A stretch of DNA of 64,000 bases, from positions 832,001 through 896,000 of the forward strand of contig OZ219866.1 of assembly GCA_964291675.2 (NCBI GenBank). Reading direction: 5' to 3'. The first letter of the stretch is position 1; the number at the start of each line of letters is the position of its first letter. Origin of the DNA: Alphaproteobacteria bacterium (GTDB taxonomy: Bacteria; Pseudomonadota; Alphaproteobacteria; MPNO01). Shown here one piece after another: positions 16,328 through 43,754 of this stretch. A model generated the notes under the pieces. That model worked only from the letters and a program-made list of their open reading frames with translations, did not search any database and was not told where the DNA came from. The translations under genes were made by a program, and so were the position numbers.

Positions 16328-16588
16328 GTCGGTTCCTCCCGAATATGTCCGGGCGCCGCGGCGCTTCTTGCGGCTCGCCGTCGGGCGCGCGGACCGGAAG
16401 TGTGCTGGGCGGGGAGGATCGCCGTCAAGCGCGCGCTGCCGGGCGCGGCGGGCGGAAGGTGTATGCCGCTGGCGGCATGCCTGCCCGTATCGAATCAATA
16501 TGTACAGCGCCCGCGCTTTCTGTCAGACTGAGAGCTTGTTCCACGCTCGGTCGAACGTTTGGCCGAATTTTCGGGGGGGAGGAAGAAC

Positions 16589-17728
16589 ATGGTAAGGGGC
16601 GTTCCACTCAGGGCCGCGCTGCTCGGCGCCGGCGCTGCACTCGTATTGGCGCTCGGGCCCGCCAGTGCGCAGGACATGAACAAGGAGATCGAGGCCCTGA
16701 AGGAACGGGTGGCCGAGCTCGAGGGCAGCACCTCGGTCTCGATCAGCGGCTACGTCAAGGGCGACTTCTTTATCGACAGCCACAACGATCTGGGCGACGC
16801 CTTCGATCCCACGTCGATCAGGCTCGACGGCGCGGGGGGAGATGACGCCGAGGACGGCAGTTTCGGGGCTCACGCCAACCAGTCCCGCTTCCGGGTGGGC
16901 ACCAGCACCGACACCCCGCACGGGGCGCTGAAGACCGTCATCGAAGGCCATTTCTGGGGCGGCAGCTCGTTCAATCTGCGCCACGCCCATGGCGTGCTCG
17001 GCCCGGTGCTGGCGGGGCAGGCGTGGTCGATCATCGTGGACGAGGACACCTTCGCCTCGACAGTGGACTTCAACGGACCGGTCGGGACGAACTTCACCCG
17101 CCAGCCGCAGCTCCGCCTGAGTCTCCCCATCGGAGATGGCTTTGTCGGCCAGGCGGCCATCGAGCCGGGCATCGAAGGCAATGAATTGCCGAAGTTCCTG
17201 GCGGCGGTTCGCTACCGCGCCGGCTGGGGCGCCGTCAACGCGGCCGGCGCGTTCGGGCGGATCGATCGCAATATGGCGGCGGCAGACGCTCCCGCCGACT
17301 GGCAGGACGAGGGCGCCTACGCGCTGCATTTCGGGGCCAACTTCAACGTGGCCGACGGCACCAAGGTGGTGGCGACGCTGAACGTGACCGAAGGCTGGAA
17401 CCTGATCTGGGGCGGGGCCAACGGCGCCAGCGCGGATGCCTCCGGCAACCTGACGACCCGTCAGACAATGGGCGGAATCGCCGGAGCCTCGCATAGCTGG
17501 ACCGACGCCATCAGCACCGGGATCTATGTCGGCTGGGTGGAGAACGACACCGAGGACGCTGATCCGGGAACCAACGAGCGGCTGCAGACGGTGCACGCCA
17601 ACGTGTTCTGGAGCCCGGTGGCCGCGGCTAGCATCGGCTTCGAGGTCATGCACGGCTGGCGCGAGACCAACGACGGTGGCTCGGGCGAGGCCACGCGCTT
17701 CCAGGTCGGCGCCCAGTACAGCTTCTAG
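16589..17728 (+). CDS. DcaP-like outer membrane porin (copy 1)
   Basis: Signal peptide, short coiled coil, ISGYVKGD, LRHA, GQAWS, C-terminal QYSF. Confidence 0.85.
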   Translation: MVRGVPLRAALLGAGAALVLALGPASAQDMNKEIEALKERVAELEGSTSVSISGYVKGDFFIDSHNDLGDAFDPTSIRLDGAGGDDAEDGSFGAHANQSRFRVGTSTDTPHGALKTVIEGHFWGGSSFNLRHAHGVLGPVLAGQAWSIIVDEDTFASTVDFNGPVGTNFTRQPQLRLSLPIGDGFVGQAAIEPGIEGNELPKFLAAVRYRAGWGAVNAAGAFGRIDRNMAAADAPADWQDEGAYALHFGANFNVADGTKVVATLNVTEGWNLIWGGANGASADASGNLTTRQTMGGIAGASHSWTDAISTGIYVGWVENDTEDADPGTNERLQTVHANVFWSPVAAASIGFEVMHGWRETNDGGSGEATRFQVGAQYSF

Positions 17729-17995: not shown

Positions 17996-19228
17996 ATGAT
18001 CGGGAGGGCGCCGCTCGGGGCAGCGCTGCTCGTTGCGGGCGCCGCCGTGGTGCTGGGGCCCGGGCCGGCCGGCGGCGCCGAGACCGGCGGCATCGAGGCA
18101 GAGATCGAATCCCTGGACAAACGGCTGGACCGGCTCGAGGCGTCGCTGACCGGGCCGGTGGAACGGGCGGTGGCCGCCGGCGTCGAGAGCGGGTGGTGGC
18201 GGATACCGGGGACCGACAGCTGGATCTCCGTCGGCGGTTACGTCAAGGGCGATTTCCATTTCGACAGCGGCAGGGATCTCGGCGATTTTTTCGTTCCCGG
18301 ACGCATCGGGCTGGACGGCCAGACAGTCCCCGGGGACGAGGACGGCGCGGTCGGGATGCACGCCCGGGAGACGCGCCTGCGCGTGGTCACCCACACGCCC
18401 AGCGCGCTCGGCGCGCTCGGCGCCGTCATCGAGACCGATTTCTACGGCGGCGGCGACGCGCTCAGGCTGCGCCACGCCGCCGCCAGGCTCGGGCCGGTGC
18501 TGGCGGGGCAAGCGTGGTCGCTGCTCGTCGACGGGGACATGGCCGCCGACACGGTCGATCTCGCCGGGCCGGTCGGGACCTACGTGCACCGCGAACCGCA
18601 GCTCCGTCTCAGCCTGGACATGGCGCCCGGCCTCGTCGGCCAGGCGGCCGTCGAGCCGGGGCTGGAGGGCAACGAGCTGCCGAGCTTGCTCGCGGCGCTG
18701 CGCTACCGCTCCGGCTGGGGCGGGGTCAGCGCGTCCGGCGCGATCGGACGGGTCGACCGCGACGGGGAGACCGAGGGCGCCCACGCGATCGCTCTGGGAG
18801 CCTTTTTCGACGTGACCGACGCCACCAGGCTGACGGCGACGTTCGGCAGGACCAGCGGCATCAGGCTGATCTGGGGCGGCGGCCCCGGCGCGGTCATGGC
18901 CCGCGGCGACCTCAAGGTCCAGGAGTCGACGGGCGGCACCGCCGGGGTCTCGCATCGCTGGTCGGATACCGTCCGCAGCGGGGCGTATTTCGGCTGGGTG
19001 GAGAATGACACCGCCGAGGGCGCCCCGGCCCGGCTGTCGGCGGGGCGCAACAAGGCGCTGCGGACGCTCCACGTCAACGTCTTCTGGAGCCCGGTGCCCC
19101 GGGCGGATATCGGCTTCGAGATCATGCATGGCTGGCGCGAGACCTACCCCAGGCCCGGCCGGGGCCGGCCGGCGCCGACCGAGGGCGAGGCGACGCGCGC
19201 CCAGCTCGGCGTGAAGTACAGCTTCTAG
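17996..19228 (+). CDS. DcaP-like outer membrane porin (copy 2)
   Basis: Paralog of 16589-17728: VGGYVKGD, LRLRHA, GQAWS, C-terminal KYSF. Confidence 0.85.
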   Translation: MIGRAPLGAALLVAGAAVVLGPGPAGGAETGGIEAEIESLDKRLDRLEASLTGPVERAVAAGVESGWWRIPGTDSWISVGGYVKGDFHFDSGRDLGDFFVPGRIGLDGQTVPGDEDGAVGMHARETRLRVVTHTPSALGALGAVIETDFYGGGDALRLRHAAARLGPVLAGQAWSLLVDGDMAADTVDLAGPVGTYVHREPQLRLSLDMAPGLVGQAAVEPGLEGNELPSLLAALRYRSGWGGVSASGAIGRVDRDGETEGAHAIALGAFFDVTDATRLTATFGRTSGIRLIWGGGPGAVMARGDLKVQESTGGTAGVSHRWSDTVRSGAYFGWVENDTAEGAPARLSAGRNKALRTLHVNVFWSPVPRADIGFEIMHGWRETYPRPGRGRPAPTEGEATRAQLGVKYSF

Positions 19229-20252: not shown

Positions 20253-20402
20253 CGTCATGCGCCGGCCCCCGGATCAAGTCCGGGGGTGATCCGCGCACCC
20301 ATGCCCGGACTTGATCCGGGCACCCACTGCCGCCACAGCCTCTCCCGCCGGGGCACCCACTGCCGCCACCGCCGCTCCCGCCCGGGGCACCCACTGCCGC
20401 CA
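20253..20402. repeat. CGTC-tagged palindromic REP cluster plus three gggcacccactgccgcca units
   Basis: cgtcatg...cccccggatcaagtccggggg, catgcccggacttgatccgggcaccca; 18-mer units at 20318, 20351, 20385. Confidence 0.85.
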
Positions 20403-20502
20403 TCGGCTTTTCCTATGCCCCGGCCAAGCCGACGGTATTGGCGCCCGCGCCCCGCCCGCCCCACATCGGGAGGCGAGGCAAGACGACGAGGCGGAGGCAA
20501 CG

Positions 20503-20607
20503 ATGCGCGGCAAACGAGGCGGCCCCTCCGGGCTGATGGACGCTCTCCAGGGCGTCCTGGCGCGGCGCTCGCAGAGGCTGCCCGCGCGCTACCGCATCCG
20601 GTTCTGA
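20503..20607 (+). CDS. Putative 34-aa basic peptide
   Basis: GGAGG RBS, ATG, MRGKRGGPSGLMDALQGVLARRSQRLPARYRIRF; no homology recognised. Confidence 0.35.
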   Translation: MRGKRGGPSGLMDALQGVLARRSQRLPARYRIRF

Positions 20608-20630
20608 CCGCCCGCCCGGAGGAGGACGCG

Positions 20631-21218
20631 ATGCACGAATTGGAGACGCTCAGGGCCGAGGCGGTCGCCGAGCAGCCCGGGCCGCACGAGCTCCTGCTGT
20701 TCGAGGCGGCGCTGTGGGGGCCGGCCTGCGACCGCCGGCGGGCGGCGCGGCGCATGCGCCCGGGCTTCAGCGCGGGCGGGTTCCCGCTGCCGCCGTTCCG
20801 CCGCGGCCGCCTGCTGGCGATCGACGCCGGCACCGCGCTGCCGCCGCGCGCCGGCCATGTCGAGAATGCCGGGCGCGCGCCCGCCGGAGACGGCTGCTCG
20901 GCGACGCCGCTGGTGCTGCCGGCCGGGCCCGGCGGCCCCGGGCTGGTCCATCTCCACATCCTCCCCGGCACGGCCGGGGGCTGGCAGCGCCGCGACGGCG
21001 CGCGCATCGGCCTGGCGGTCGCCGGGCGCGGGCTCGTGCATCGCGAGGCGGGCCCGCCGCTGGCGCTCTACCCCGGCCGCGCCTGGCGCATCCCGCCCGG
21101 CGCGCGCCACCGCTTCGAGACCGGCGTCTACGCGCTCGACATGCTGGTGTTCGAGGCCGCGGGGGCCTGGGCGCCGGCGGGCGAGGCGGCCCGGGCGCTG
21201 GAGCCGGTGCCGGCGTGA
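20631..21218 (+). CDS. Degenerate cupin-fold protein
   Basis: GGAGGAGG RBS; RIGLAVAGRG...IPPGARHRFET cupin-like second half; first-motif histidines absent. Confidence 0.55.
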   Translation: MHELETLRAEAVAEQPGPHELLLFEAALWGPACDRRRAARRMRPGFSAGGFPLPPFRRGRLLAIDAGTALPPRAGHVENAGRAPAGDGCSATPLVLPAGPGGPGLVHLHILPGTAGGWQRRDGARIGLAVAGRGLVHREAGPPLALYPGRAWRIPPGARHRFETGVYALDMLVFEAAGAWAPAGEAARALEPVPA

Positions 21219-21263
21219 GCGGCGACCCTTCGGCAGGCGCGCGGCCAGCCCCCGACAATCGCC

Positions 21264-21321
21264 CCCGGTGTTCCACTGTCCCCAAAGAAATTCCCGACTG
21301 TATGTATCGAGGGGTCCGGGC
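21264..21321 (+). repeat. ~58-bp imperfect direct repeat, copy 1
   Basis: cccggtgttccactgtccccaaagaaattcccgactgtatgtatcgaggggtccgggc; matches 24568-24626. Confidence 0.9.
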
Positions 21322-21344
21322 CCCGTCATACGCTCGTTCGAACC

Positions 21345-21506
21345 ATGGTCCCCGCGAACCTGGTCCTGATTTTCGCTTCCTGCGTGGGCGTCGGCACGGC
21401 GATCGCCGTCGCCGTTCAGGGCGTCATCCAGGGATATTTCCGGGAGTCCCTGCTCGGGGGCGCCTTCCTCGCCTGGGTGCTCCGCGAGATTTTCGAGGAC
21501 CGGTGA
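21345..21506 (+). CDS. 53-aa small membrane protein (not in ORF track)
   Basis: MVPANLVLIFASCVGVGTAIAVAVQGVIQGYFRESLLGGAFLAWVLREIFEDR; two hydrophobic stretches, GC-rich third positions; RBS weak. Confidence 0.55.
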   Translation: MVPANLVLIFASCVGVGTAIAVAVQGVIQGYFRESLLGGAFLAWVLREIFEDR

Positions 21507-21689
21507 CGCGTGCGCGCGAACCGCCGCCGGGCGGCCGCGGCGCGGCCCCCAGGGGAGGGACCCGGAGCGCGGTCCCGCCGGCGCGAAGCCGGAGACGCCG
21601 GTATGCGCGGTGGCGCGGACGGGCGGTCCGGGGCCGCGGAAGCCCGGGCGGGTCCTCCCGCCTCCAGCCCATCGCGACAGGGAGCTCGC

Positions 21690-22322
21690 ATGAACTACTA
21701 CACCTACCATTTCATCGTGAACGGCCGCGTCGTTCATACCGGGATCACCACCGACCCGACACGCCAGCAGCTGGCGGATCAGGCGAGATGGTCCCAGGGC
21801 CATATCCAGGTTGTCGGCGGCCCGATGCCGGAGCGGGCCGCGATGGCATGGAAAGCGAATGCCGACCGGCAAGCCCGCCTGGCGGGGAAATCGCCGCAGG
21901 GCCCGCGCTACGCGGGAGACGAAGCCATCGGCATCGACATCGAGCGCGACGATGGCATCGTGACCGTGAGCGTGACGGGCCGGATGGACTCGGTGTCCGC
22001 GCAGAGCTTCCACCGCGAGACCAGGCCCCTCATCGAAGACGCCGCGCGCGGCGTCGTCCTGAACCTGACCGACCTGACCTTCATGAGCAGCGGCGGGCTC
22101 CGGGCGACCCTGCTCCTGGCGAGGCAGCTCGGCGCGAGACGCAGCACCCTGGTCATGTACGGGCTGTCGGAGATGGTCCGCGAGGTCTACGCCATCAGCG
22201 GCTTCGACCGGTTCCTCAACATCGTGGAGAGCCGCGCGGCGGCGATGGCGATTGTCGGGCGGGAGGAGTCGTCCCCGGACCCCGGCGGGGAAGCTCCCAA
22301 GCCGCGCGGCACCGCCCGATGA
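21690..22322 (+). CDS. STAS (anti-sigma-factor antagonist) protein with N-terminal mini GIY-YIG-like domain
   Basis: C-terminal VTGRMDSVSA...DLTFMSSGGLR...VREVYAISGFDRFLNI; N-terminal YTYHFIVNGRVVHTGITTDP; GGAG RBS. Confidence 0.8.
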   Translation: MNYYTYHFIVNGRVVHTGITTDPTRQQLADQARWSQGHIQVVGGPMPERAAMAWKANADRQARLAGKSPQGPRYAGDEAIGIDIERDDGIVTVSVTGRMDSVSAQSFHRETRPLIEDAARGVVLNLTDLTFMSSGGLRATLLLARQLGARRSTLVMYGLSEMVREVYAISGFDRFLNIVESRAAAMAIVGREESSPDPGGEAPKPRGTAR

Positions 22323-22489
22323 GGGGATGGCACGGACCCGGCGGGGTGCAAGGCCGCTAGCACCGGCAAGGCGGACGGACCCGCGCCCGGGCGTTGCGGG
22401 GTTGAAGGCGGGCAGGCGCCGGACCATTTCAAGTAGAGCATGAATGCGCACCACGCACGCATGCCGTGCGCCGGTCCCGGGCGGGCGCG

Positions 22490-24064
22490 GTGACCGGGGC
22501 GGGCGGGATCGAGACCGTCGGCGGCGCGGAGATCGCCGCGGCGATCGACCGGCGGCGCTGCTTCCGGGGCTTCCGCTACCGCCTGCTCGGCATCGCCCGC
22601 AAGGCGGCGTTCGCCTGCTTCCTGTTCCAGTATCTGCTGCTCTTCGAGGTCGGCCTCCCGTGGGCCCTGGCGCTCGGCGCCGCGGCGCTCGCCGTCGAGC
22701 TCCGCACCAACCGGTTCACGATGGCGACCTATGCGACCCGCGAGATCGTCGATCTGCTGTTGCGGCGGGCGAGCCTGGAAGCGAAGCGCAACGATGCCCC
22801 GAAGCGGGTGGCCGCCGGTTCGCTGCTCTGGCTCGCGGGCGTCGTCGGCTGCATCGCGGGCGTGCCGTTCTGGGTGTGCCAGGCGGCGATGTTTGCCGGC
22901 GCGCTGTGGCTGCTGTGGGCGCTCAAGACCGTGGACGCGATCGGCAACATCGGGAGCGGGATGTTCGAATACATCGAGACCGGGGACGGCCGGTTTCATG
23001 TCCGGCTGCGACGCAACCTTGGCGACATGGAACTCATCCGGCCCTGGGAAGACCGGGGCTGGTCCGCGTATATCCTGGCGATCCTGTATGCGTCGTTTGC
23101 GGCTCTCGCGCTGTTCGCCGCCGTCGCCGACATCCGGGACCTCGAAGGCGGAGAAAATGCGTTCACCCTTCTGCCGCTCGTCCTTTCCGTGTTCGGCTGC
23201 GCCGCCCACGAGCCGGCCCGGTTCCACCTCGTCGACCGCGAGCTGGAGCGCCTGCGCGGATGCGGCGCGCGACCCGGAGGGCTGGGCCGGGGCGCTGCGC
23301 CGGGCGGACCGCGAGGAGAGTCTCATCGCCGGGCTCGGCACATGACCCCGGCCGGGATCGCCCGGGCGGTCGAGGCCAGGGGGTTTCGCTGGAACCTCTA
23401 TCTCCACCTGCTCCGCATCGCCCGCCGATACGCCTTCACCTGGCTCGCCGGCCAGTACTTGCTGGCGGTCGGCGCCCATCCGCTGTCGACGATCGTGACC
23501 ACCCTCTGCGTCTGGGGCTTGGAACGCGCCACCAACCGGTTCGCGCTGCGGGTCCATTCGACGCAGCGCATCGTCGATCACTGGCTGGGGCGCCCGGCGC
23601 TGGGCAAGTCCGCGCTGCGCTGGGGCGATGCGCAGATCGTGCTCTGCCTCGCCGGCGTCGCCGTCTTGCTGGTCTGCCGGTCCGGCGCGCCGGTCTATCT
23701 GTGCCAGATCCTGTTCTTCTCGGCGATGGTGGCGGCGCTCTACTGGGCGAAGACCGCGGATTTCCCGCCCTTCCATCTGCACCGCCCCGCCCTCGTCCGG
23801 CTGTTCGGCCCGGCGCTCAGGCCGGTGCGCAGCGTGTTCGCGGGCCTGTCCTGCCTGGTCGGCCTGACGGTCTGGCTGGTGCTGCCTCTTACGCTTTGGG
23901 GCAAAGGCGGGGCGATGGCGCTGGACCACGCCGACCAGCCCTGGGTGCTGGCGATCGCCATCCTGCCCTTGCTCGGCTGCGCCGGCCACGAGACGCTCCG
24001 CTTCCTGCTGGTGCGCCGCGAGATGGCGCGGCTCGGGGAGCAACGCCGGGGCGAGACCGGGTAG
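22490..24064 (+). CDS. Polytopic membrane protein made of two homologous halves
   Basis: Motifs IAR..AF....QYLL, E..TNRF......T..IVD and GCA.HE..RF.LV.RE..RL each occur twice; start uncertain. Confidence 0.7.
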   Translation: MTGAGGIETVGGAEIAAAIDRRRCFRGFRYRLLGIARKAAFACFLFQYLLLFEVGLPWALALGAAALAVELRTNRFTMATYATREIVDLLLRRASLEAKRNDAPKRVAAGSLLWLAGVVGCIAGVPFWVCQAAMFAGALWLLWALKTVDAIGNIGSGMFEYIETGDGRFHVRLRRNLGDMELIRPWEDRGWSAYILAILYASFAALALFAAVADIRDLEGGENAFTLLPLVLSVFGCAAHEPARFHLVDRELERLRGCGARPGGLGRGAAPGGPRGESHRRARHMTPAGIARAVEARGFRWNLYLHLLRIARRYAFTWLAGQYLLAVGAHPLSTIVTTLCVWGLERATNRFALRVHSTQRIVDHWLGRPALGKSALRWGDAQIVLCLAGVAVLLVCRSGAPVYLCQILFFSAMVAALYWAKTADFPPFHLHRPALVRLFGPALRPVRSVFAGLSCLVGLTVWLVLPLTLWGKGGAMALDHADQPWVLAIAILPLLGCAGHETLRFLLVRREMARLGEQRRGETG

Positions 24065-24146
24065 GCGGAGACATCGCGACCGCGCCCGGGACGGGCGACG
24101 CCGCGTGTCGAAGCCCGGCCCCCGCCAATCGCCCCCCCCCAGCCTT

Positions 24147-24552
24147 CATGCCCGGACTTGATCCGGGCACCCATGGCCGGACTTGATCCGGCCACCCACC
24201 GCCGCCACCCCTCCCCACGGCCCGCCGTGCGCGCCGATAGGCCGCATGGGTGCCCGGATCAAGTCCGGGCATGACGAGGGGGGTGCATGACGGGGGGAAA
24301 GAGCATGGGACGCGTGGGGTGCGGTTGCGCATGACGGGGGGTGCATGACGAGGTGGGGAGGCATGGCGAGCGTTCGGGCGCTCGGGCACGACGCCGGGGA
24401 TCGCCGGCGGGCGCGCCGCCCCCCGTGACGCCCGGCCCCCGCTCCGTCAAATAATCTGGATAAGCCCCTATCGAAGGGCAGCCCGGCCCCCCCAAGCGTC
24501 ATGCTTGGCCCCCGGATCAAGTCCGGGGGTGAGCCGGGCACCCACTGCCGCC
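24147..24552. repeat. CGTC-tagged REP cluster
   Basis: Tandem/inverted catg(c/g)ccggacttgatccgg(g/c)caccca units; about 24147-24249 is nearly identical to about 54321-54425. Confidence 0.88.
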
Positions 24553-24567
24553 CTCGCGGCGTCGCGC

Positions 24568-24657
24568 CCCGGTTTTTCCACTGTCGGTAAAGAAATTTCC
24601 GACTGTATGTATCGAGGGATCCGGGCGCCGGCACGGCGATCGCCTTCGCCGCTCAGG
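24568..24657 (+). repeat. Direct repeat copy 2 fused to a fragment of the 21345 small ORF
   Basis: Matches 21264-21321 and then 21386-21420 (cggcacggcgatcgccNtcgccgNtcagg). Confidence 0.85.
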
Positions 24658-25544
24658 CGGCCTCGCCCCGCAGGATCTCGCCCTCCACATAAGCGCGGAA
24701 CGCCGCGCCCGAGGTGAAGCAGCGGTAGCCGGCGGCGCTGGCGATCGCCAGAAGCTCGGCCGGCTCGTTCAGCAGCACGGCGACCGGCCCGGTCAGCCCG
24801 GGCTGCAGCCCGTCCGGCCAGGCGAGGTCGAACACCGCCATCTGAGCGCCGGTCGCCGGGTCGGCGTGGTCGAAGGCGAGCGCCCCGCGCGGCAGGTCGC
24901 GTGCGGCGATCCAGTCGTTGAGCGCCTCCAGCTCCCGCTCCTCGGCCTCGCTCGCGATGCCGCCGGGCGGGGCCGGGGCCGGCTCGGCGGTCGCCGGCCG
25001 GGCTTCGGCGAGCCATTTCGGATCGCCGTGCAGCAGGTCGGCGAAGCACCGGTTGGCCTCCGCCGCCAGCAGGGCCCTGCGCGCTGCGAGAAAATCGCGG
25101 TAGCGCTCGATGCGCCACAGGGCGGGGTCCATCGGTATCCACTGCGAGGCGAGCGCGCCCGGATGGCTCGCCTCCACCGCCTCGAAATACGCCTCGGGGA
25201 AGCGGTTGCCGATGACCAGGTTGGTCTCCCTGGTCAGGATGCGGATTCCTACGGACTTGACGGCGGATTCCTATTTTACTTGACCGCGATTCCTGGCACT
25301 TGACCGCCAGGGCGGTGGCGTTTGTCAGTCTCTCCCGGGTGTTGCCGTAGGGGTTCTCCGTTGCTGGTTGGGGGCTGGCCGGAGGTCAGCCCGGTGCGAG
25401 CGTAAGCGAGCCCTCGCCGTCATGCAAAGGCCTGTCGGGCGCGGCGGCGAGCTCCCTCATTCAGCACGCCGCCGCGCGCGCCTGTGTTGCCACCGGGGAC
25501 GGCGCCGCAGGCGCCCATGGACCCGGCCGCCAGGCCGGGCCCCC

Positions 25545-26306
25545 TCACTTGTCGTTGCCGCCGTCGAGCGGCGGCGGCCTGTTGCGCTTGCGCTGGGATT
25601 CGCCCTTGAGGTCGATGCGGTAGGCGTTGTGGACGATTCTATCGAGGACCGCGTCGGCGATCGTGGGTTCTCCGATCACCTCGGGCCAGCGCTCCACGGG
25701 TATCTGACTGGCGATCAGGATGGACTTGCGTCCGTGTCGCGCCTCGGCGATCTCCAGCAGGTCGCGCCGGCCCTCGGTAGAGAAGCCTTGCAGCCCCCAG
25801 TCGTCGAGGACCAGCAGGTCGACCCTGGCGAGGCGTCCCATCAACCGGGCGTGGGTGCCCTTGTCGCGGGCGCGGTCCAGCGCCGTGACCAGCTCGGGGA
25901 CGCGGCGGTAGAGCACCGACTGCTTCTGGCGGCAGGCCTGGTGGGCGAGCGCGCAGGCCACGAATGTCTTGCCCGATCCCGTTGCGCCGAGCAGGACGAG
26001 ATTGACGGCCTGTCGGATCCAGTCGCCGGCGGCGAGCTGGGTGAGCGTGGTTCGGGCGATGCCGCGCCCGGCGCGGCAGTCGACGTCCTGGATGTCGGCG
26101 CGGATGCGCAGCTGGGCCTGGCGCAGGTGGCCGAGATAGCTCCTGTGCTCGCGGTGCTCGGCCTCGCGCTCGATCAGCATGGCGAGGCGGTCGTCGAAGC
26201 CGAGCCGCTCGATGTCGGGGACGTCCTTCTGCTCCTCAAGCGCCTCGGCCATGCCGGTGAGGCCGAGCTGCAGCATGCGTTCGATATTGGGCTGTCGCAG
26301 GGTCAT
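25545..26306 (-). CDS. istB: IS21 helper ATPase
   Basis: GATGSGKT, LLVLDDWG, IADAVLDRIVH, GESQRK. Confidence 0.96.
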   Translation of the reverse strand: MTLRQPNIERMLQLGLTGMAEALEEQKDVPDIERLGFDDRLAMLIEREAEHREHRSYLGHLRQAQLRIRADIQDVDCRAGRGIARTTLTQLAAGDWIRQAVNLVLLGATGSGKTFVACALAHQACRQKQSVLYRRVPELVTALDRARDKGTHARLMGRLARVDLLVLDDWGLQGFSTEGRRDLLEIAEARHGRKSILIASQIPVERWPEVIGEPTIADAVLDRIVHNAYRIDLKGESQRKRNRPPPLDGGNDK

Positions 26307-27892
26307 GGTGTCGCTCCGTCGTTTCCGTAGTAATCGCCGCCGCGGATGTTGTCGTGGCCGGGGATGGTCTCCCTGGCTTGCACGCGGCGCCGATCGGGGC
26401 CGCCGCCGTGCTTGATGCGCTCCCTGAGGAAGCCCGAGGCGAGGCGGTTGAGATCGAGGGCCTCGGCGCAGAGCGCGTCGAGGCGCGCGTCGTCGTGGTC
26501 TTCGGCGAGGCGGATCATCCCCTGCACGGTGGCGAAGGCCTGTTCGGGGAAGTCGCGCGAGGCGAAGCAGCGCTCGGCCCAGGCCGCGGCGTTCGGGCCG
26601 ATCTTGCGGGCGCGCTCCAGCAGGATGTCGCCGTAATCGGGCTCGCGGATGTCGCGCACCGCCCTGAGACGGTCGGGCATGTGCTCGGGCTCGGTGGCGT
26701 ACTGGTTGCGCCCGCTCTTCAGCCGGTGGACGGCGATCCGCTCGCCGCCCTTGTCCAGGAAGAGCTCGACCATGCGCTCGCCGACCCGGGCGTGGATCTT
26801 GCGGCCGATATGGCGCTCCGGCGCGGAGTAGTGATTGCGGGCGATGCGGACGTGGCAGTTGGGCCCGACCTTCCGCTCGATCCACTCGCCCCATTCCCAG
26901 GGGTTCCGGGGCAGCGGCTTGAGGAGTGTCCGCTCGCCTGCTTCGAACAGCGCGCGCCGGGTCTCGCCGCACGCCATGGGGGCTTCGTTCAGCCGGTCGA
27001 GCTCGCGCCGGATCGCGGCGTTCATCGCGTCCAGCGAGAAGAAGGTCTCGTGACGCAGCACCAGCAGGATGCGCGACTGGACCGCCCCGACGCAGGCCTC
27101 CACGAGCCCCTTGTCGGTCGCTCGCCCCGAGCGCGCCGGCAGCACGGCGACGCCGTAGTGCTGGGCGAACTCGCGGAAGCTCGGATTGAGCCGGGGCGCC
27201 TCGCGGTCCGGCTTGTCGACGCCGGCCTTGAGGTTGTCGATGATCCAGCGCCCGGGGACGCCGCCGAAGTACTCGAAGGCGCGGCGATGCGCCATGATCC
27301 AGTGACGCACGCGCTGGTCGGGCACCGCCTCGGCATAGATCAGGTTCGAATGCGCCAGCACGGCGACGAAGATCTCGACATCCTTCTCGCCGCGGCCGGT
27401 CCTCAGCGCCAGCGTCTTGCCGGAGAAGTCGGACAGGCCCCAAAGACCCGGCGCATAGTGGAAACGCATCTGCGCCGGCTCGGGCCGGCTCCCCAGACGC
27501 TCGCCGAGCAGCGCGCAGAACCGGCTGTAGGTATAGGGCTTGCCCTCCTGGGCCAGCGCCTCGTCGCGGTACTCGACCCAGAGCTGGCGCCGCGTCAGCC
27601 GGGCGCGGCGGCGCTTGCGCGGCGCGGTGAGCGCTTCGATGACCGCATCCCAGTCCGGCTGAACCCGGTCGCCGTCCGGATCCGGCGCCGGGTAGAGCCG
27701 CGCGCGAAGCGCCGCATCGTCGAGATCGTCCGGCAGCGGCCAGGACAGACCCGCCGCCGCGGCACGGGCAAGCACATGCGAGACCGTCCCCGTGCTCACC
27801 CCGACCGCGGCCGCGATCTGCGCCCGAGGCAGCGCAAGATCGTGGCGGTGCCGCAGAATGTCCTTGATCTTCATCGTGCCGGTCCTCTTCAT
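26303..27892 (-). CDS. istA: IS21 transposase
   Basis: N-terminal HTH, FGGVPGRWIIDNLKAGV, DKGLVE; ATGA overlap with istB. Confidence 0.96.
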   Translation of the reverse strand: MKRTGTMKIKDILRHRHDLALPRAQIAAAVGVSTGTVSHVLARAAAAGLSWPLPDDLDDAALRARLYPAPDPDGDRVQPDWDAVIEALTAPRKRRRARLTRRQLWVEYRDEALAQEGKPYTYSRFCALLGERLGSRPEPAQMRFHYAPGLWGLSDFSGKTLALRTGRGEKDVEIFVAVLAHSNLIYAEAVPDQRVRHWIMAHRRAFEYFGGVPGRWIIDNLKAGVDKPDREAPRLNPSFREFAQHYGVAVLPARSGRATDKGLVEACVGAVQSRILLVLRHETFFSLDAMNAAIRRELDRLNEAPMACGETRRALFEAGERTLLKPLPRNPWEWGEWIERKVGPNCHVRIARNHYSAPERHIGRKIHARVGERMVELFLDKGGERIAVHRLKSGRNQYATEPEHMPDRLRAVRDIREPDYGDILLERARKIGPNAAAWAERCFASRDFPEQAFATVQGMIRLAEDHDDARLDALCAEALDLNRLASGFLRERIKHGGGPDRRRVQARETIPGHDNIRGGDYYGNDGATP

Positions 27893-29608
27893 CGCGCCCC
27901 CGCCTGCTCGATCCGATCGAGCGATCGATCAGGCAGGGTCGGGAGAGAATCGGCACCTCGGACGGCTCGTCGGACGCCGCCCGGCAATGGCCCGTCAGGC
28001 CAGGTCCAGAGCCTCGGCCCGGACCGTCAAATGCTCAGGAATCGCGGTCAAATCCCGTAGGAATCGCGGTCAAATCCGCCAGGAATCTGCAGTCAGGAAG
28101 CAGAAATTGGCCACCGCGTTGACCTCCGCCCGCTCGTAACCGGCGTCGTAGAGCCGCGACTTGGGGAAGATGTGGTGCACCTCCAGGCGGTGCATCCTGC
28201 CCAGCAAATCGGCCTTGAGGGGCAGGCCGGTCCCCCAGTCCCTGGCCTGGCCCATGCGGGTCAGCATGTAGAGCACCGGATAGAACCGCGCGCCGAGGCT
28301 CCAGCCGTCGAAATGGCCGGGCTCGACGCGCAGCCCGCCCTGCCACAGGCGGAGCCGCTCGATCGGCGCGTCGAGCCCGCCATCGGGGCCTTCCAGCGCC
28401 GCGAGGTCCTGGTCGATAACGGTCTCGGTCGAGCCGGAGAACCGGCCCCACATCCCGGCCTGGGCGAACCAGAAGAGCAGCTTGTCGCTCTCCTCCGCGG
28501 CCATCGGCCGGGCCCTTCGGTCCATGTAGCGCACCATCACCGGCACGCCGAAGCGCCCGAACAGCACCCGGTCGTGGTCGAGCCCGATCCGGCCCGGCGA
28601 TCAGGTCGAGGCTGGCGTCGATCTGCCTGGCCGCGCGCGCGAGCCCGTCCTGGATGTCGGGCGCCGCCTTGTCGTGCAAATGGGCGAACCTCGCCTCGCC
28701 GGTGAGCACCGTGTTGACCGAACGGAGCAGCCAGTCGAGGTTGAAGGAGTAGCCGGCGTCCTCCCACGCCTTCAGCTTCGCCTTCATCTCGCCCCGCGCT
28801 TCGGGCCATTCGGCGCAGATCCTGGCCAACGCCAGATCGCCCTTCGAGAGCTTGGTGCCGCCGCTGTTGACGCGGTTGAAGATGTCGACGACGACATCGA
28901 GCGACTTGTCCGCGCCGGTTACCTCTTCGACGTGAAGGTCGATTTCGGTGATGCTGAGCAACGTGCTCAGACGGCCGACGAAATCGCCCACCCGTTCGGC
29001 GAGCTCGGGAATTGCCGTCAGCCGGCCAACGAAGCCGCCGAGCCCGGCGGCCCCCCCTTTCATCAGCTCGGTAACGTCGATCCAGAGCGGATCGCCGCGC
29101 ATCCTGACGGGCTGATAGAACTCGAAGCTCTGGTCTTCCAGATGGAAGCGCAGCCCGGTGAAGGTCTGCGGGTTGCCGTCGAAGAATTCGGGCGGCTTGC
29201 CGCGCACCACCCCGTAGAGCGAGGTCATGCGCTGCTGCCCGTCGAGCAGCAGCTTGACGCTGCCGGCGGCGACCGGCCCGCCGCCGCGGCGGTCGGCGGT
29301 CTTCGACTCCGTCACCCAGACCAGCAGCCCGCCCACCGGATGGCGCCGGTACAGCGACTCGAACAGCCCGCGCACCTGGTCGCGGTTCCACACATAGCCG
29401 CGCTGAAACTCGGGCAACGCCATGTCGCCGCTGTCGATGTAATCGAGAACGGTGGAGATTTTCATGGGTGGGGCTCGCTCGTTGTCGTTGGAGCCGCAAA
29501 GGGAGGCGTTCGGTTGGGGTTATGATCGGCGATGGCCGGCGTCGAGAACGACGTCGACCCCGTCCGCTCATAGCCTTGCTTAACGCTGTCGGCTGGCAAT
29601 GTCCCCTC

Positions 29609-33914: not shown

Positions 33915-33969
33915 TTAGGATCGCCCGGGCGGGGTGACATTTGGCCCCGGCGCCCCTAGATTCCGCGCC

Positions 33970-35812
<1,843 letters not shown>

Positions 35813-35841
<29 letters not shown>

Positions 35842-36466
35842 GCCGCTGACCCCCGAGGCCTGCGCCGCCGCGCTTAATGTTTCACGTGAAACATTAGAGC
35901 GCCTCGAATCCTATGTGGCCCTCCTCGGGCGCTGGCAGCGCCGGCGCAACCTGGTCGGGCGCGGCACCGAGGCCGATATCTGGCGCCGCCACATCCTGGA
36001 TTCGGGCCAGCTCGCGGCGCATCTGCCGCCCGGCGCCCGGCGCATCGTCGATCTCGGCTCGGGCGCCGGCCTCCCCGGGCTGGTGCTCGCCATCCTGACC
36101 GGGGCGGAGACCGCCCTCGTCGAGGCCGACGCCGCCAAAGCCGCCTTCCTCGCCGAGGCCGCGCGCGCCACCGGGGCGCGCTGCGAGATCCGCCGCGCCC
36201 GGATCGAGGACCTCGCGCCCTGGCCGGTCGATGTCCTGACCGCCCGGGCGCTCGCGCCGCTGCCCCGTCTGCTCGACTACGCCGCCCCCTTCGCCCCGCC
36301 GCTCGCGATCTTCCCCAAGGGCGCGCGCTGGCGCGAGGAATTGACCGAAGCGTCCCGGACATGGCATATCTCGGCACGCGACGCGCCGAGCGCGACCGAG
36401 CCCGCGGCGCGGATTCTCATCGTCGAGCGCTTCGCCAGGAAGGCAGCCATGACCGGCGACGCATGA
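35813..36466 (+). CDS. rsmG: 16S rRNA m7G527 methyltransferase
   Basis: [34 protein letters not shown]. Confidence 0.95.
35878..35893. promoter_or_regulatory. parS centromere site 3 (inside rsmG)
   Basis: Perfect TGTTTCACGTGAAACA encoding VSRET. Confidence 0.96.
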
Positions 36467-37266
36467 CCGGAGAGCCCGGCCCGCCCGTCCCGGGGCGCAT
36501 CATCGCCATCGCCAACCAGAAGGGCGGCGTCGGCAAGACCACGACCGCGATCAACCTCGCCGCCGCGCTGGCCGCCGCGGGCAAGCGGCTGCTGGTGCTC
36601 GACCTCGACCCCCAGGGCAACGCCTCCACCGGGCTCGGCATCGCCCGCGCCGAGCGCCGCCGGGGCAGCTACGACGTGCTGTCGGGCACGGCCGCGCTCG
36701 GCGACGTGGCCCGGCCGACCGAGATTCCGGGCCTGTTCGCGGTGCCGGCGACGGAGGACCTCTCGGGCGCCGAGATCGAGCTCGCGACACTCGACCGGCG
36801 GGTCTACCGGCTGCGCGACGCGCTCGGCGGCGCGGACGCGCTCGCCGCCTGGGACTACATCCTGATCGACTGCCCGCCCGCGCTCGGCCTGTTGACGCTC
36901 AACGCGCTGGCCGCCGCCGACCGCGTGCTGGTGCCGTTGCAATGCGAGTTCCTGGCCCTCCAGGGGCTGAGCCAGCTCGTCCGCACGGTCGAGCGGGTGC
37001 AGCGGAACTACAACCACGAGTTGCATATCCAGGGCATCCTGCTCACCATGTATGACAGCCGCAACCGGCTGAGCGCGCTGGTCGCCGACGACGTGCGCGG
37101 CTATTTCCGCGACAAGGTGTTCGAGACGGTGATCCCGCGCAACGTCCGGGTGTCGGAGGCGCCGTCGCACGGCAAGCCGCTGCTGCTCTACGACCATCGC
37201 TGCTCCGGCGCCCGCGCCTATATGCACCTCGCGGGCGAGATGCTGAGCCGGGAGGGGGTTGCATGA
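36463..37266 (+). CDS. parA: Chromosome partitioning ATPase
   Basis: NQKGGVGKTTT, DLDPQGNAS, DCPP, IPRNVRVSEAPSHG. Confidence 0.97.
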   Translation: MTGEPGPPVPGRIIAIANQKGGVGKTTTAINLAAALAAAGKRLLVLDLDPQGNASTGLGIARAERRRGSYDVLSGTAALGDVARPTEIPGLFAVPATEDLSGAEIELATLDRRVYRLRDALGGADALAAWDYILIDCPPALGLLTLNALAAADRVLVPLQCEFLALQGLSQLVRTVERVQRNYNHELHIQGILLTMYDSRNRLSALVADDVRGYFRDKVFETVIPRNVRVSEAPSHGKPLLLYDHRCSGARAYMHLAGEMLSREGVA

Positions 37267-38150
37267 CCGAAGAGAGATCCAAGCTCGGGCGCGGCCTGTC
37301 GGCGCTGTTCGAGGACGACGGGCCCGCCGCCCCGCAACCCGGCGCCGGCGCGGCGAGCCTGCCGGTGGCCGACCTCGCGCCGGGCCCGTTCCAGCCGCGC
37401 GAGACTTTCGACGACGAGGCGATGGCCGCCCTGATCGACTCGGTCAAGGAGCGCGGCGTGATCCAGCCGCTGATCGTCCGCGCCGACCCGGGCGCGCCCG
37501 GGCGCTACCAGATCGTCGCCGGCGAGCGGCGCTGGCGCGCGGCCCAGGCGGCGCAGCTCCACGAGGTGCCGGTCGTCGTCCAGGAGCTCACCGACGATGC
37601 CGCGCTCGAGGTCGCGCTGATCGAGAACATCCAGCGCCAGGACCTCACGCCGATCGAGGAGGCCGAGGGCTACCGCCGGCTGACCGCCGAGTTCGACCGC
37701 ACCCAGGAGGAGCTCGCCCGCTCGCTCGGCAAGAGCCGCAGCCACATCGCCAACGCCATCCGGCTCCTCAACCTGCCGGGCCCGGTCAAGCTGCTGCTCA
37801 ACAATGGCGGGCTCTCGGCCGGGCACGGCAGGGCGCTGCTCAACGCGCCGGACCCGATGGCCGTGGTCGGCGAGATCCTCAAGCGCAATCTCACCGTGCG
37901 CGACACCGAGCGCCTGATCGCCGGCCACGCCAGCCGCGCCCGCCGCGGCCCCCGCCCGCGCGCCGACAAGCCGCACGCGATCCTCGACGTCGAGCGCGAG
38001 CTCGCGCGCTGCCTCGGCATCAAGGTCGCCATCGTCCCCCGCGAGGGCCGGACCGGCGACCTCATCATCCGCTACAACACGCTGGAACAGTTCGACGATC
38101 TGCTCAGGCGGCTGACGAAAGGGGTGATGGGGGGGGAGGTAAAGGGGTGA
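37263..38150 (+). CDS. parB: Chromosome partitioning protein
   Basis: [35 protein letters not shown]. Confidence 0.97.
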
Positions 38151-38709
38151 GTGAGGTGGTTGGAGCATTACAGCATCTTTGATCTTGCCTAATCAACAAG
38201 ATTGCATGGGCGCTAAAGAATGCCCCACCCTTGGGTTCCATGGCTACGGCGGCGGTGCATGTCCCGCGTAAAGTCAATGCTCGGACTCGATCAGCCCGGC
38301 ACGAAAACAACACTCACCGAATCCGCCGCACAGTTCACCGACCGTTTGCGCGAGACCAATGGGTGAAGAAACCAACATCTCTTCTAACGGGCGTGTGCCG
38401 GGGCCGCTGTCTTGTACCGACGTATCGGCCATACAATGCCGCCCCCAATACGAAAACTATTCTATCGGACCTCTTCCAAGTCAACACCCGTCTCGGCGAA
38501 TACCTCACCCGCGTACAACCCGGGGTTTGAGTACTAACTTTATTCCGGTGCACCCTGACTCGTCGGAATCACATCACTCCCTGTTACATCTGTCGTTGAC
38601 GCAGTGGAGAAACCCAGAGTCCTAACCGTCCTTACGTACTGGAATTTGAGCGAGCTAGCCGAAAATGACCCTGATCGTTAGCTTCATCAAGCCGATGTTC
38701 ACTTAGTCG

Positions 38710-40155: not shown

Positions 40156-40198
40156 TACAGTATGCAAGTAGCTTTTTCACAATGATTGAATGGTGAGC

Positions 40199-40996
40199 CT
40201 ACGCATCCTTAAGCGTGATAATTGTGGATCGCGCCCTCTCTAATTCTCCGGCCGGAACCAGACGGTAGTGGCGTTCCTCAAGCACCTGAATCTCGTCGTC
40301 CTGCAATGTCAATTCGATCAGCGCGATCTCCCCATTCTTCATGAGCTGCGCGGCCACCGGCCGGCAATGAAGGCTCCGAAATTTCTCTTCTACGAAGGCA
40401 ATGTCCTGGATGACCTGCACGACGCCGATCCGGTCCTTCCCGACCTTCGCCTGAACAGGAATTATGTGATGGCCACCGTCCTTGTCCAAGCCGATATAGA
40501 GCTCGTCGACCTCGATCTGTCCCATTCCTTCTACAGTCGTTCGGAGATGGTTTTGCAGGCTGTAGGTCGTGAGGCCGAGGAAGGTGTCGATCAGCCGGTT
40601 GTACCTGACGATCGCCAACAGAGCCTGCTCGTCGCCCATCGCGTGGAACCGGATGAGCTCGGGCGTTGCGTCGGGGATGTCGGTGACGACGAGCCCCTCC
40701 CGCGGCAGGATGTTGGCCTTCCTGAAAAGCTTGAACCGGTATCGGCCCTTACCCGCGCCCAGAATAATCCACTCGCGCCCGTCCGGCTGCGTCGCGAGGA
40801 TGCTTTCGGGCAATTTGCGCCGGTAACGGAAGGAATAGGGAACGTCGCCGATATTCCTGACCCGCGCAAAGCCGAGAGCGGCGGCGCCGGTCTCCAGCTC
40901 CTCTCGCACGAACTCGAACTCCGTCGCCCCGTCCGCATAGTGGTCGAAGAAGACCTTTTGGATCAGTTTCTGGTATCGGTTCAGGTCCTCAGCCAT
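40199..40996 (-). CDS. Putative PD-(D/E)xK restriction endonuclease
   Basis: GQIEVDELYIG...IIPVQAK; overlaps the methylase stop. Confidence 0.75.
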   Translation of the reverse strand: MAEDLNRYQKLIQKVFFDHYADGATEFEFVREELETGAAALGFARVRNIGDVPYSFRYRRKLPESILATQPDGREWIILGAGKGRYRFKLFRKANILPREGLVVTDIPDATPELIRFHAMGDEQALLAIVRYNRLIDTFLGLTTYSLQNHLRTTVEGMGQIEVDELYIGLDKDGGHHIIPVQAKVGKDRIGVVQVIQDIAFVEEKFRSLHCRPVAAQLMKNGEIALIELTLQDDEIQVLEERHYRLVPAGELERARSTIITLKDA

Positions 40997-42799: not shown

Positions 42800-42879
42800 C
42801 GCGGCAAATATTCCGCTGGGGGATTGGACGTTGAAATGCACGGACATCCGTACAGGATTTCGCGCCGTCCGGCGAGGCC

Positions 42880-42982
42880 CGCCGAGACCGCGCTCCGCCT
42901 CGCGCGCTATTTCGGCACCGATGCCAGGAGCTGGATGAACCTGCAGCAGGGCTGGGCGCTCGAACGCGCGGCGCGGGACGGC
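42880..42982 (+). pseudogene. Remnant of higA 3' half
   Basis: Near-identical to 43483-43584 (AETALRLARYFGTDARSW..LQQ.WALERAARDG). Confidence 0.88.
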
Positions 42983-42998
42983 GGCAGCGATCGATCGC

Positions 42999-43030
42999 TT
43001 GATTTCTGTATATCGAAATGCGATATACGG
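42999..43030 (+). promoter_or_regulatory. higBA promoter/operator
   Basis: TTGATT then CTGTATATCG-aaatg-CGATATACGG inverted repeat. Confidence 0.65.
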
Positions 43031-43036
43031 CGCAAC

Positions 43037-43315: not shown

Positions 43316-43333
43316 GACCGGGGAGCCACCGCC

Positions 43334-43627: not shown

Positions 43628-43628
43628 G

Positions 43629-43741: not shown

Positions 43742-43754
43742 GTGGGCGCCCCCC

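Follow-up and report, generated by a model that had tools for sequence, protein, structure and literature searches.

A variable alphaproteobacterial locus with a partial direct repeat, a STAS fusion gene and two paralogous membrane genes

Genes and features of the locus

The region described here lies within a 64-kb window (the whole stretch of DNA analysed, C2:832001–896000), and its features are given below in window coordinates.

20640–21218, + strand: cupin-like gene, left flank (Pfam Cupin_2 25.2 bits, below the 27.2 cut-off)
21245–21420, + strand: left repeat copy (block X 21245–21266, Y 21260–21328, Z 21386–21420), covering the intergenic region and the small ORF's first ∼25 codons
21345–21506, + strand: 53-codon orphan ORF, with hydrophobic residues 1–30 and a charged tail
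21690–22322, + strand: STAS fusion, a 210-aa cytoplasmic protein (GIY-YIG/URI-like residues 1–64, linker, STAS 78–191)
22466–23345, + strand: gene A, predicted multi-pass inner-membrane family, A-type, 63% identical to the protein at the same locus in G010, a genome of the same genus
23342–24064, + strand: gene B, 26% identical to its paralog A and of the B type; its start codon (ATG) overlaps the ancestral stop of A (ATGA)
24115–24136, + strand: right repeat copy, block X, matching the left copy in sequence
24137–24564, no strand: REP/BIME-like cluster, palindromic units that interrupt the right repeat copy (inverted repeats I1, I4, I5 and I16)
24565–24657, + strand: right repeat copy, blocks Y and Z, without 68 bp that include the small ORF's ATG
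24653–25240, − strand: 3′ fragment of a GmrSD-like gene (the ‘174-aa ORF’)
25241–28081, − strand: IS21-family element inside the GmrSD-like gene (istA 26303–27892, istB 25545–26330; Pfam rve, Mu-transpos_C_2, IstB_IS21)
28082–29465, − strand: 5′ part of the GmrSD-like gene (Pfam GmrSD_N 89.1 bits; frameshift near 28594)

As stated in the preliminary description, three co-oriented ORFs lie between the repeat copies, but the start of the second and the nature of the third had to be revised. The small ORF has codon-position G+C values of 0.69/0.43/0.87, resembling real genes of the region, and found only itself among 5.8 billion clusters; it is an orphan and would encode a small hydrophobic peptide. 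The true start of the STAS fusion is at 21690, not 21510. This start is shared by all nine full-length homologs (9/9), and AGGGAG is found 6 nt before the ATG.

The third ORF (22466–24064, 532 aa) had been read as an ‘internally duplicated’ membrane protein. It does contain two homologous halves, but these are really two paralogous genes, A and B, fused by the loss of 2 nt near 23262. Compared with G010, the window lacks 2 nt following the RLR codons, and the tail of the A protein of the closest relative (P0024) matches 23259–23342 in the other frame at 28/28 residues. The ancestral stop of gene A, the TGA at 23343–23345, also lies in the other frame. The G+C of the A/B linker is 0.94/0.76/0.71 in the fused frame, which gives a GC3 of 0.94 in the other frame, and B-type homologs begin at query residues 289–294. 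An independent read-derived contig spans 22541–24175 without difference. A and B were thus once separate genes, coupled by the ATGA overlap and then fused here by the deletion.

The A/B family is small, with 16 matches in 1.84 billion representatives, all of them single-unit proteins or fragments of 147–304 aa. It is also mosaic: the A protein of the closest relative is 42% identical in its body, in addition to the fully matching tail, and its B protein is 90% identical. The model of the membrane protein has a pLDDT of 82 and a pTM of 0.78, and no structural match above Z 4.0 was found. Conserved polar residues are predicted at the cytoplasmic ends of the helices, a topology derived from the model and the charge distribution. 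A rare, confidently modelled membrane family without a fold relative is worth recording, and its function is putative.

The REP cluster reported between the repeats was confirmed. Its 17-nt core has 227 copies in the genome (120 forward, 107 reverse) versus 0 for the reversed control, and the summed contig depth over the cluster reaches up to 7880, compared with ∼11–15 in the flanks. The short palindromic unit is thus found genome-wide, in both orientations and clustered between genes, as a REP/BIME-like element should be.

Homologs of the cupin-like gene on the left were found in 9 of 20 family genomes (G000 counted), all within the genus. On the right, the GmrSD-like neighbour adjoins the region more directly than had been claimed, since the ‘174-aa ORF’ next to the right repeat copy turned out to be the gene's own 3′ fragment: residues 456–646 of the intact 650-aa protein of genome G015 correspond to 25240–24668. 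Residues 1–291 of the same protein map to the 5′ part in frame −2 and residues 291–461 in frame −3, and the gap in the mapping coincides with the IS21 element. The N-terminal DUF262/GmrSD_N domain expected of a GmrSD-like type IV restriction enzyme is present, and the uninterrupted frame has been lost to the frameshift and the IS21 insertion.

Structure and probable origin of the direct repeat

The direct motif of ∼58 bp reported at 21264 and 24568 is real, but is longer and more decayed than was claimed. There are two same-orientation copies in the 4.8-Mb genome, 86–91% identical. Blocks Y (21260–21328 and 24565–24633, 69 nt, 86%) and Z (21386–21420 and 24623–24657, 35 nt, 91%) are joined by a third collinear block, X (21245–21266 and 24115–24136, 22 nt, 91%), which places the true start of the right copy at 24115. 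A 41-nt core pattern of the repeat occurred twice in the window versus 0.00 times in 100 shuffles. Block Y had no match in the 19 other family genomes.

The repeat is a duplicated 5′ region of the small ORF, consisting of upstream DNA and the first ∼25 codons. The right copy is split by the 428-bp REP cluster (24137–24564) and ends on the GmrSD-like gene's stop codon; 68 bp of the left copy, among them the ATG at 21345, have no counterpart in it. In their central 30 nt the copies differ at a single position, and the flanks of the repeat diverge more.

We favour, with moderate confidence, the explanation that this is a variable chromosomal locus with a duplication scar, rather than a mobile cassette or a proven defence system. 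In the direct repeat we see a partial, since diverged, duplication of the small ORF's own 5′ region, most likely arising by local duplication or recombination and then deletion, and the right copy would later have been split by the REP cluster and shortened by 68 bp. The deletion would have ended where the GmrSD stop codon coincides with a 7-nt match, G(C/T)TCAGG. Duplication followed by deletion is, however, one among several histories that fit, and no relative with an intermediate structure was found. Two further points weigh against this explanation, namely the surroundings, which are rich in defence genes, and the near-identity of the central 30 nt, which could point to a conserved regulatory site instead of a neutral scar.

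That last point leads to another reading, in which the repeat is a regulatory element (promoter or operator) present twice, with the left copy driving the small ORF, with or without the downstream genes, and the right copy acting as a second, perhaps antisense, control at the GmrSD end. Consistent with this, the repeat block has a higher A+T content than the DNA around it, sits 32 nt upstream of the ATG that opens the small ORF and contains two ACTGT words 22 nt apart. However, there were 0 sigma-70-type promoter matches in 21000–25300, the motif has no further copy in the genome and none in the 19 family genomes, and the right copy includes coding sequence of the ORF, which is a better fit to duplication than to a reused operator. 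We consider a regulatory role unlikely.

Comparison with related genomes

The gene content of the locus differed between close relatives. In G010, the order is cupin, 264 bp, A, an XRE-HTH gene and a GmrSD 3′ remnant, with an RT-like ORF at the same place; its A shares 70 bp of upstream DNA with the window's A, and its B is 18 kb away. No small ORF, STAS fusion, N-domain or repeat was found in G010. In G001, the order is cupin, an RHH gene, a plain STAS gene on the other strand and a GmrSD remnant. One locus thus has different gene content in three genomes of one genus. Since G010 has A at the locus, the STAS fusion absent and B at a distance of 18 kb, what lies between the repeat copies is not one unit, and a single acquired module bounded by the repeats is not supported.

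A mobile cassette, with site-specific or Campbell-type recombination as its mode of integration and attL and attR represented by the repeat copies, is very improbable. It would account for direct repeats at both ends with only two copies in the genome, and also for the limits of similarity to G010: the cupin-side DNA is 79% identical as far as 21222, divergence begins within ∼25 bp of the left copy and homology returns (at 24650) exactly at the end of the right copy. Against it, no recombinase, integrase or transposase was found in 21245–24657 among the ORFs or with Pfam, nor any recombinase beside the repeats, the nearby IS21 element sitting in the GmrSD-like gene with its own ends. The copies are 9–14% diverged, one being split by REP sequences and one carrying the 68-bp indel, and gene A, inside the supposed cassette, is syntenic in G010. 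The composition is native-like, with a G+C of 0.71–0.73 across the stretch, as in the surroundings, and a GC3 of 0.87–0.93 for all four coding parts.

Two genomes (G010 and G001) have both flanks adjacent, each holding other genes there, and none of 19 family genomes showed an empty-site allele in which one repeat copy stands alone; nor was an excision joint found that would indicate an excised circle. The proposal of a discrete acquired module is not supported.

On the explanation that we favour, the stretch would be part of a variable chromosomal region near mnmG-parAB, between the cupin-like gene and the decayed GmrSD-like 3′ end. It resembles chromosomal variable defence islands in its varying gene content, its GmrSD-like gene broken by IS21 and a frameshift, and its REP insertions; decayed defence genes lie beside the locus, namely the IS21-split gene and, in G010, the RT-like ORF. 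Unlike in described defence islands, none of the known defence families was recognised among the genes that the repeats enclose. With the cassette reading unsupported, the repeat structure itself is of minor interest, although the pair, if it is a duplication scar, is a useful example of an att-site mimic.

The STAS fusion protein and a possible functional module

The C-terminal domain of the fusion matched Pfam STAS (PF01740) at 56.3 bits (cut-off 22.6) and TIGR00377 at 65.7 bits (cut-off 53.45), and in the model of the protein (pLDDT 74) it superimposed on 1tid_B with Z 19.9 and an rmsd of 1.4 Å over 113 residues. The fusion has ten known homologs, each of them from metagenomes. All 11 of 11 sequences carry S133 and S134, and S134, in the loop ahead of helix 2, aligns with the first serine of the DSSGL loop in SpoIIAA chains, which we take to be the phospho-acceptor. 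Judged by its sequence, the domain is of the SpoIIAA/RsbV (partner-switching) type with the phosphorylatable serine retained, and phosphorylation is predicted. It is like these antagonists in fold, in both above-threshold profile matches and in the invariant serine, and unlike them in having an additional N-terminal URI-like domain of ∼64 residues and in the absence of a kinase, phosphatase or sigma gene within the 64-kb window.

The head of the protein had been called GIY-YIG-like. It is URI-like but degenerate, and residues 1–70 matched 0 Pfam families, including PF01541, even at E up to 10. The modelled beta-beta-alpha-beta-alpha topology fits the URI fold, a three-stranded sheet flanked by helices, the ESM feature score was 0.95 to clusters with PF01541 in 58% and 81% of members, and GIY-YIG or homing endonucleases made up 8 of the best 50 rows of a viral Foldseek comparison, at weak E values (0.011–0.054). 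A Y-x-Y ... V-H-x-G-I-T-x-D ... R pattern is common to the fusion N-domain and five stand-alone homologs, four of which (4/5) gave weak PF01541 matches (E 0.0087–0.25; 12.1–16.8 bits, under the 22.6 cut-off).

In its modelled core and its sequence pattern the fusion resembles small stand-alone GIY-YIG (URI) forms, but it differs at the motifs that these conserve. The stand-alone homologs (n = 5–6) have RRExEH and WE, whereas the fusion has RQQLADQ and WK (EH to A/D-Q and WE to W-K), with R25 retained. Because of these replacements, catalysis by the head is doubtful, and it may be more likely to bind than to cut. No paper containing both ‘STAS domain’ and ‘GIY-YIG’ was found in the collection of papers searched. 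The URI-like plus STAS architecture is worth recording and would extend the recent finding that the STAS phospho-switch is reused outside sigma-factor control.

The usual STAS partners are indeed missing from the window, which contains 0 of the genome's 5 Sigma70_r2, 0 of its 14 HATPase_c_2 and 0 of its 1 SpoIIE domains. Elsewhere in the genome there are RsbW-like ORFs at C1:953076 and C2:2005706, a single SpoIIE-type phosphatase at C2:2006131 and three other STAS genes; the nearest RsbW-like ORF and SpoIIE domain (C2:2005706–2006706) are ∼1.15 Mb from the locus. The suggestion of a partner switch holds for the type of domain and its conserved serine; no cognate kinase or phosphatase is encoded alongside. 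The fusion probably feeds a kinase and phosphatase encoded elsewhere, and could be phosphorylated and dephosphorylated in trans by the two RsbW-like kinases and the one SpoIIE-type phosphatase.

Our preferred explanation, the variable locus with a duplication scar, has to be set against the co-orientation of the genes, with no predicted terminator-like site between them. In addition, the closest relative's STAS fusion (P0011), A (P0024) and B (P0012) each have a longest contig of 6863 bp, and this relative appears to carry the three together on that contig. A common operon and function are therefore possible. The STAS phospho-switch might dock on or control a membrane complex of A and B in signalling or abortive-infection defence, aided by the small peptide and with the kinase acting in trans; we consider this less likely than the explanation that we favour. 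The position next to the GmrSD-like gene, the RT-like ORF of G010, the rarity and mosaicism of the A/B family and its polar residues, which are predicted to face the cytoplasm, would all suit such a module. STAS domains also regulate membrane transporters and, in the case of CapKS and VapKSC, both immune operons and a toxin (PMC13373217).

Several observations argue against a single module. G010 has A and B without the STAS fusion or its N-domain, A shares its own 70-bp upstream DNA with G010, and the intergenic gaps of 183 and 143 bp are not operon-tight. Co-occurrence of the STAS fusion with A/B was seen only in the closest relative. The contig sizes of the other, distant STAS fusions (53010, 19907, 70860, 53015 and 12370; likewise 6403/89264/4933, 1491, 914 and 1685) never equalled those of a membrane-family member, a weak test because clusters hide members. 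No kinase is adjacent, and the three proteins had no PADLOC match. Any functional tie of the STAS protein to A/B is putative and unproven.

[quoted passage not shown] The fusion resembles them in its conserved-serine STAS domain, in a second part that may bind nucleic acid or a partner and in its defence-gene region, and is unlike them in that its extra domain is N-terminal and URI-like, with no kinase adjacent and no HATPase_c_2 in the window. It is improbable that the genes form an undescribed defence or stress module in which a STAS switch with an inactivated URI-nuclease head gates a heteromeric A/B membrane effector, with kinase and phosphatase in trans; the head's service there as a sensor or tether is an equally speculative proposition. 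If true, a module of this kind would carry the VapKSC/CapKS logic over to a membrane effector.

The direct repeat and the variable setting of the locus

The preliminary description placed three genes within an acquired cassette bounded by direct repeats. The repeat is real, and is longer and more decayed than described: a 41-nt core pattern has two occurrences in the window, compared with 0.00 in 100 shuffles, and a 101-nt query finds only these two places in the whole genome (two contigs, 4.8 Mb, G+C ∼72%), of which the window is C2:832001–896000. The features of the locus are:

21345–21506, + strand, small ORF of 53 codons
21690–22322, + strand, STAS fusion protein, 210 aa
22466–23345, + strand, membrane gene A
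23342–24064, + strand, membrane gene B, fused to A in a 532-aa membrane ORF
24137–24564, REP cluster
24653–25177, − strand, 174-aa ORF

The repeat consists of three collinear blocks, the first found by extending the unit leftwards:

21245–21266 and 24115–24136, 91% identity
21260–21328 and 24565–24633, 86% identity over 69 nt
21386–21420 and 24623–24657, 91% identity over 35 nt

The left copy is continuous (21245–21420), and comprises the DNA upstream of the small ORF together with its first 25 or so codons. The right copy begins 50 bp past the stop codon of the membrane ORF, is interrupted by the REP cluster, and is missing 68 bp that the left copy has, among them the ATG at 21345. It runs out on the stop codon (24653) of the gene on the minus strand. 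Given this block anatomy, the interruption by the REP cluster and the 68-bp loss, we conclude that the repeat is a decayed duplicate of the gene's 5′ region, unlike a pair of short att cores. A search of 19 other genomes in the family did not find the 21260–21328 block; matches there to the repeat query fell only in a G+C-rich stretch of it (E 1e-4 to 9e-3). An Rfam search returned nothing beyond a chance miRNA match (E 0.89), a sigma-70 promoter scan of 21000–25300 gave no sites, and two terminator-like sites were found where 1.6 were expected.

The 53-codon ORF is a probable gene. Its codon-position G+C (0.69/0.43/0.87) is as in real genes here. Residues 1–30 are strongly hydrophobic, and a search of 5.8 billion clusters returned only the ORF itself.

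The REP core has 227 copies in the genome, compared to none for a reversed control. A second group of the same units, with three tandem 33-nt repeats (20318–20417), lies at 20266–20420 upstream of the cupin gene, so that REP clusters flank the locus on both sides.

The gene content of the locus varies among genomes of the same genus. In the complete genome G010, the cupin gene is 79% identical at the DNA level to that of the window, up to 21222. This is followed after 264 bp by the gene for a 281-aa protein, 63% identical to the first half (A) of the membrane ORF, and the two A genes have 70 bp of upstream DNA in common. After A come an XRE-type HTH gene and then the end of the same minus-strand gene as in the window; homology returns at 24650. 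The small ORF, the STAS fusion and the repeat are all absent from G010, and its B-type gene is 18 kb away, beside an IS21 element. In G001, what lies between these two flanks is an RHH gene together with a plain STAS gene of opposite strand. On the downstream side of the cupin gene in five other genomes of the genus, coding-like ORFs are listed at three of the five loci and downstream ones at two, these being dissimilar.

This synteny argues against a discrete acquired module, as does the composition of the repeat-flanked stretch: its G+C is that of the surroundings, and its codon-position G+C is native (GC3 0.87–0.93). No recombinase ORF was found between the repeats. In the assembled contigs of two sequencing runs, there was neither a joint linking the repeat copies nor a deletion of the 3.3-kb stretch; as contigs drop rare variants, this check does not address rare excision. 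Contigs from the one public run containing the stretch match it without differences (record 1, 20600–21969; record 7, 22541–24175; record 8, 24421–25239), and the two rows of the contig comparison with letters in between fall within the REP cluster. The locus is best read as a variable chromosomal stretch carrying a duplication scar, and a repeat-bounded acquired cassette is unsupported. It does hold a STAS domain architecture that is new, along with a rare membrane family of orphan status.

The cassette was also said to abut a GmrSD-like nuclease gene. The right repeat copy does touch the stop codon of a GmrSD-like gene, and the adjoining 174-aa ORF is not a separate gene but the 3′ fragment of this one. 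Its homolog in the genome G015 is the C-terminal part of a single 650-aa protein with a GmrSD-type N-terminus, which maps to the minus strand of the window in three pieces:

29465–28593, − strand, G015 residues 1–291
28594–28082, − strand, G015 residues 291–461, in a different frame
25240–24668, − strand, G015 residues 456–646

Therefore, the GmrSD-like gene of the window (24653–29465, − strand) is a pseudogene, broken by a frameshift near 28594 and by insertion of an IS21 element (istA, istB) at 25241–28081. The intact version is at L028 70–2022 in G015. The GmrSD remnant of G010 is adjoined by an ORF (L014 3453–3863) that has a YIDD-type reverse-transcriptase motif and sits within a longer open frame whose GC3 is low (0.52; L061 1225–2340), possibly a defence gene of the retron or DRT kind.

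The STAS fusion protein and its N-terminal head

The start of the STAS protein is the ATG at 21690, with AGGGAG 6 nt upstream, and the same start is seen in all nine full-length homologs. Ten homologs were found, metagenomic without exception. Nine have 55–74% identity over 90–97% of the length, and the tenth (P0011, from the closest relative) has 88% identity over 60%. The fusion is absent among 40 relatives' genomes, where matches were to the STAS part or, in four genomes, to the head alone. A scan of genome contigs gave ten loci, every one a plain STAS gene; among metagenome contigs it gave five, comprising four plain STAS genes and one stand-alone N-domain. Within the collection of papers searched, none mentions ‘GIY-YIG’ together with ‘STAS domain’.

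The C-terminal domain is a STAS domain of the SpoIIAA/RsbV type (Pfam, 56.3 bits; TIGR00377, 65.7 bits; Foldseek E 2e-11), which superposes on 1tid_B with Z 19.9 and an rmsd of 1.4 Å over 113 residues. S133 and S134 are invariant in the family; in the alignment, S134 falls opposite the first serine in the SpoIIAA DSSGL loop, the residue that we take to be the phospho-acceptor. As noted previously, the usual STAS partners are missing from the window. The two small RsbW-like ORFs at C1:953076 and C2:2005706, the one SpoIIE-type phosphatase at C2:2006131 and the three other STAS genes of the genome are all distant from it, and none of the five Sigma70_r2 hits in the genome falls inside.

The SpoIIAA/RsbV antagonists, together with the recently described CapS and VapS, are the nearest functional analogues. 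In CapS and VapS, an adjacent GHKL kinase phosphorylates a STAS domain that has a conserved serine, and this releases a repressor or toxin (PMC13373217). Compared to the proteins as described there, the STAS fusion has another domain order, another extra domain and no adjacent kinase, and so is not a CapS/VapS member.

The head (residues 1–64) is the most conserved part of the fusion family. The label ‘GIY-YIG-like’ is supported only as a putative likeness of fold: the head itself has no PF01541 match at E up to 10, but its modelled topology is beta-beta-alpha-beta-alpha, and by ESM features it scores 0.95 to a Tox-URI2 cluster as well as to clusters where PF01541 is carried by 58% and 81% of the members. 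In a viral Foldseek search, GIY-YIG or homing endonucleases made up eight of the best 50 rows (E 0.011–0.054); in the PDB fold searches, which used the whole protein, the STAS domain took all rows. Of 60 relatives, five have stand-alone homologs of the head, of ∼70 aa, and all but one of these match PF01541 weakly (E 0.0087–0.25). The N-domain had no relative on viral contigs and no plasmid match. Where the stand-alone forms have RRExEH and WE, the fusion family has RQQLADQ and WK, and catalysis has therefore probably been lost in the fused head.

Membrane genes A and B

The membrane ORF had been described as an internally duplicated protein. Its two halves are homologous (26% identity), as proposed; they are two paralogous genes, originally separate and translationally coupled, that a 2-nt deletion has fused. 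Four observations show this. B has an ATG of its own at 23342. In another frame, the 28 codons ahead of it agree at 28 of 28 residues with the tail of P0024 (an A-type fragment from the closest relative), and this frame terminates in a TGA overlapping the ATG. The A protein of G010 likewise has RLREDAAR at the fusion point, where the window is 2 nt shorter. Finally, the codon-position G+C of the linker (0.94/0.76/0.71) fits the other frame and not the fused one. The fused sequence itself is confirmed by a read-derived contig. The start ATG of the G010 A gene has no in-frame counterpart in the window (22436–22468), where the first in-frame start is a GTG at 22466; the 5′ end of A may thus carry a small indel too.

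Searching 1.84 billion representatives with the membrane ORF gave 17 hits. One, a 787-aa repetitive protein, was left out. All of the remaining 16, which are 147–304 aa long, are fragments or proteins of a single unit, matching residues 5–280 (A type) or 289–531 (B type), never both. The family had no Pfam, NCBIfam, PADLOC or meaningful PHROGs match, and was found in none of 400 other genomes of the class and in no plasmid records. In the ESM Atlas the best score was 0.82, to unnamed clusters.

The model of A is confident (pLDDT 81.7, pTM 0.78) and has no structural relatives (best Foldseek PDB E 0.13; best VIA-align wide Z 4.0). About 14 of 50 rows in the wide search came from tetrameric cation channels and covered the pore region, with Z of 3.1–3.9, too weak for use. 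Judging from its helices and from where Arg and Lys are found, we infer that A crosses the membrane six times and has its long loops and both termini in the cytoplasm. K154, D157 and R252 are invariant in the family and E249 nearly so; in the model these residues would lie at cytoplasmic helix ends, which argues against a periplasmic sensor.

Linkage of the genes and neighbouring features

We then considered whether the genes belong together functionally. The only positive sign of linkage is that the longest contig given for the STAS fusion, for A and for B of the closest relative (P0011, P0024 and P0012) has the same length, 6863 bp. On this contig, the STAS gene is in three frames relative to the window, so the contig is either error-prone or decaying. 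Against a single module, A and B are present in G010 without the fusion, and no contig size is shared between the other fusion homologs and those members of the membrane family that were listed, a weak test as clusters hide members. A complex prediction for A, B and the STAS fusion, with the STAS protein as partner, an alignment for each and no controls, scored 0.00, which speaks neither for nor against a complex. We regard one functional module as unlikely.

Compared to the window, the closest relative is 42% identical in the body of A, 28/28 in its tail and 90% in B, a mosaic that suggests recombination inside gene A.

The locus lies ∼10 kb from mnmG, parA and parB (33934–38150). Within 33934–44535, this origin-proximal gene set is followed by a low-G+C island at 38–41 kb (G+C 0.47–0.55), which holds a 481-aa ORF without a Pfam match. 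Beyond the island are:

40989–42320, C5 DNA methylase
42317–43378, Vsr endonuclease ORF

At the other side of the locus, two adjacent paralogous ORFs of 389 and 410 aa (16559–17728 and 17996–19228) resemble outer-membrane porins in their signal-peptide-like starts and in ending with ...YSF.
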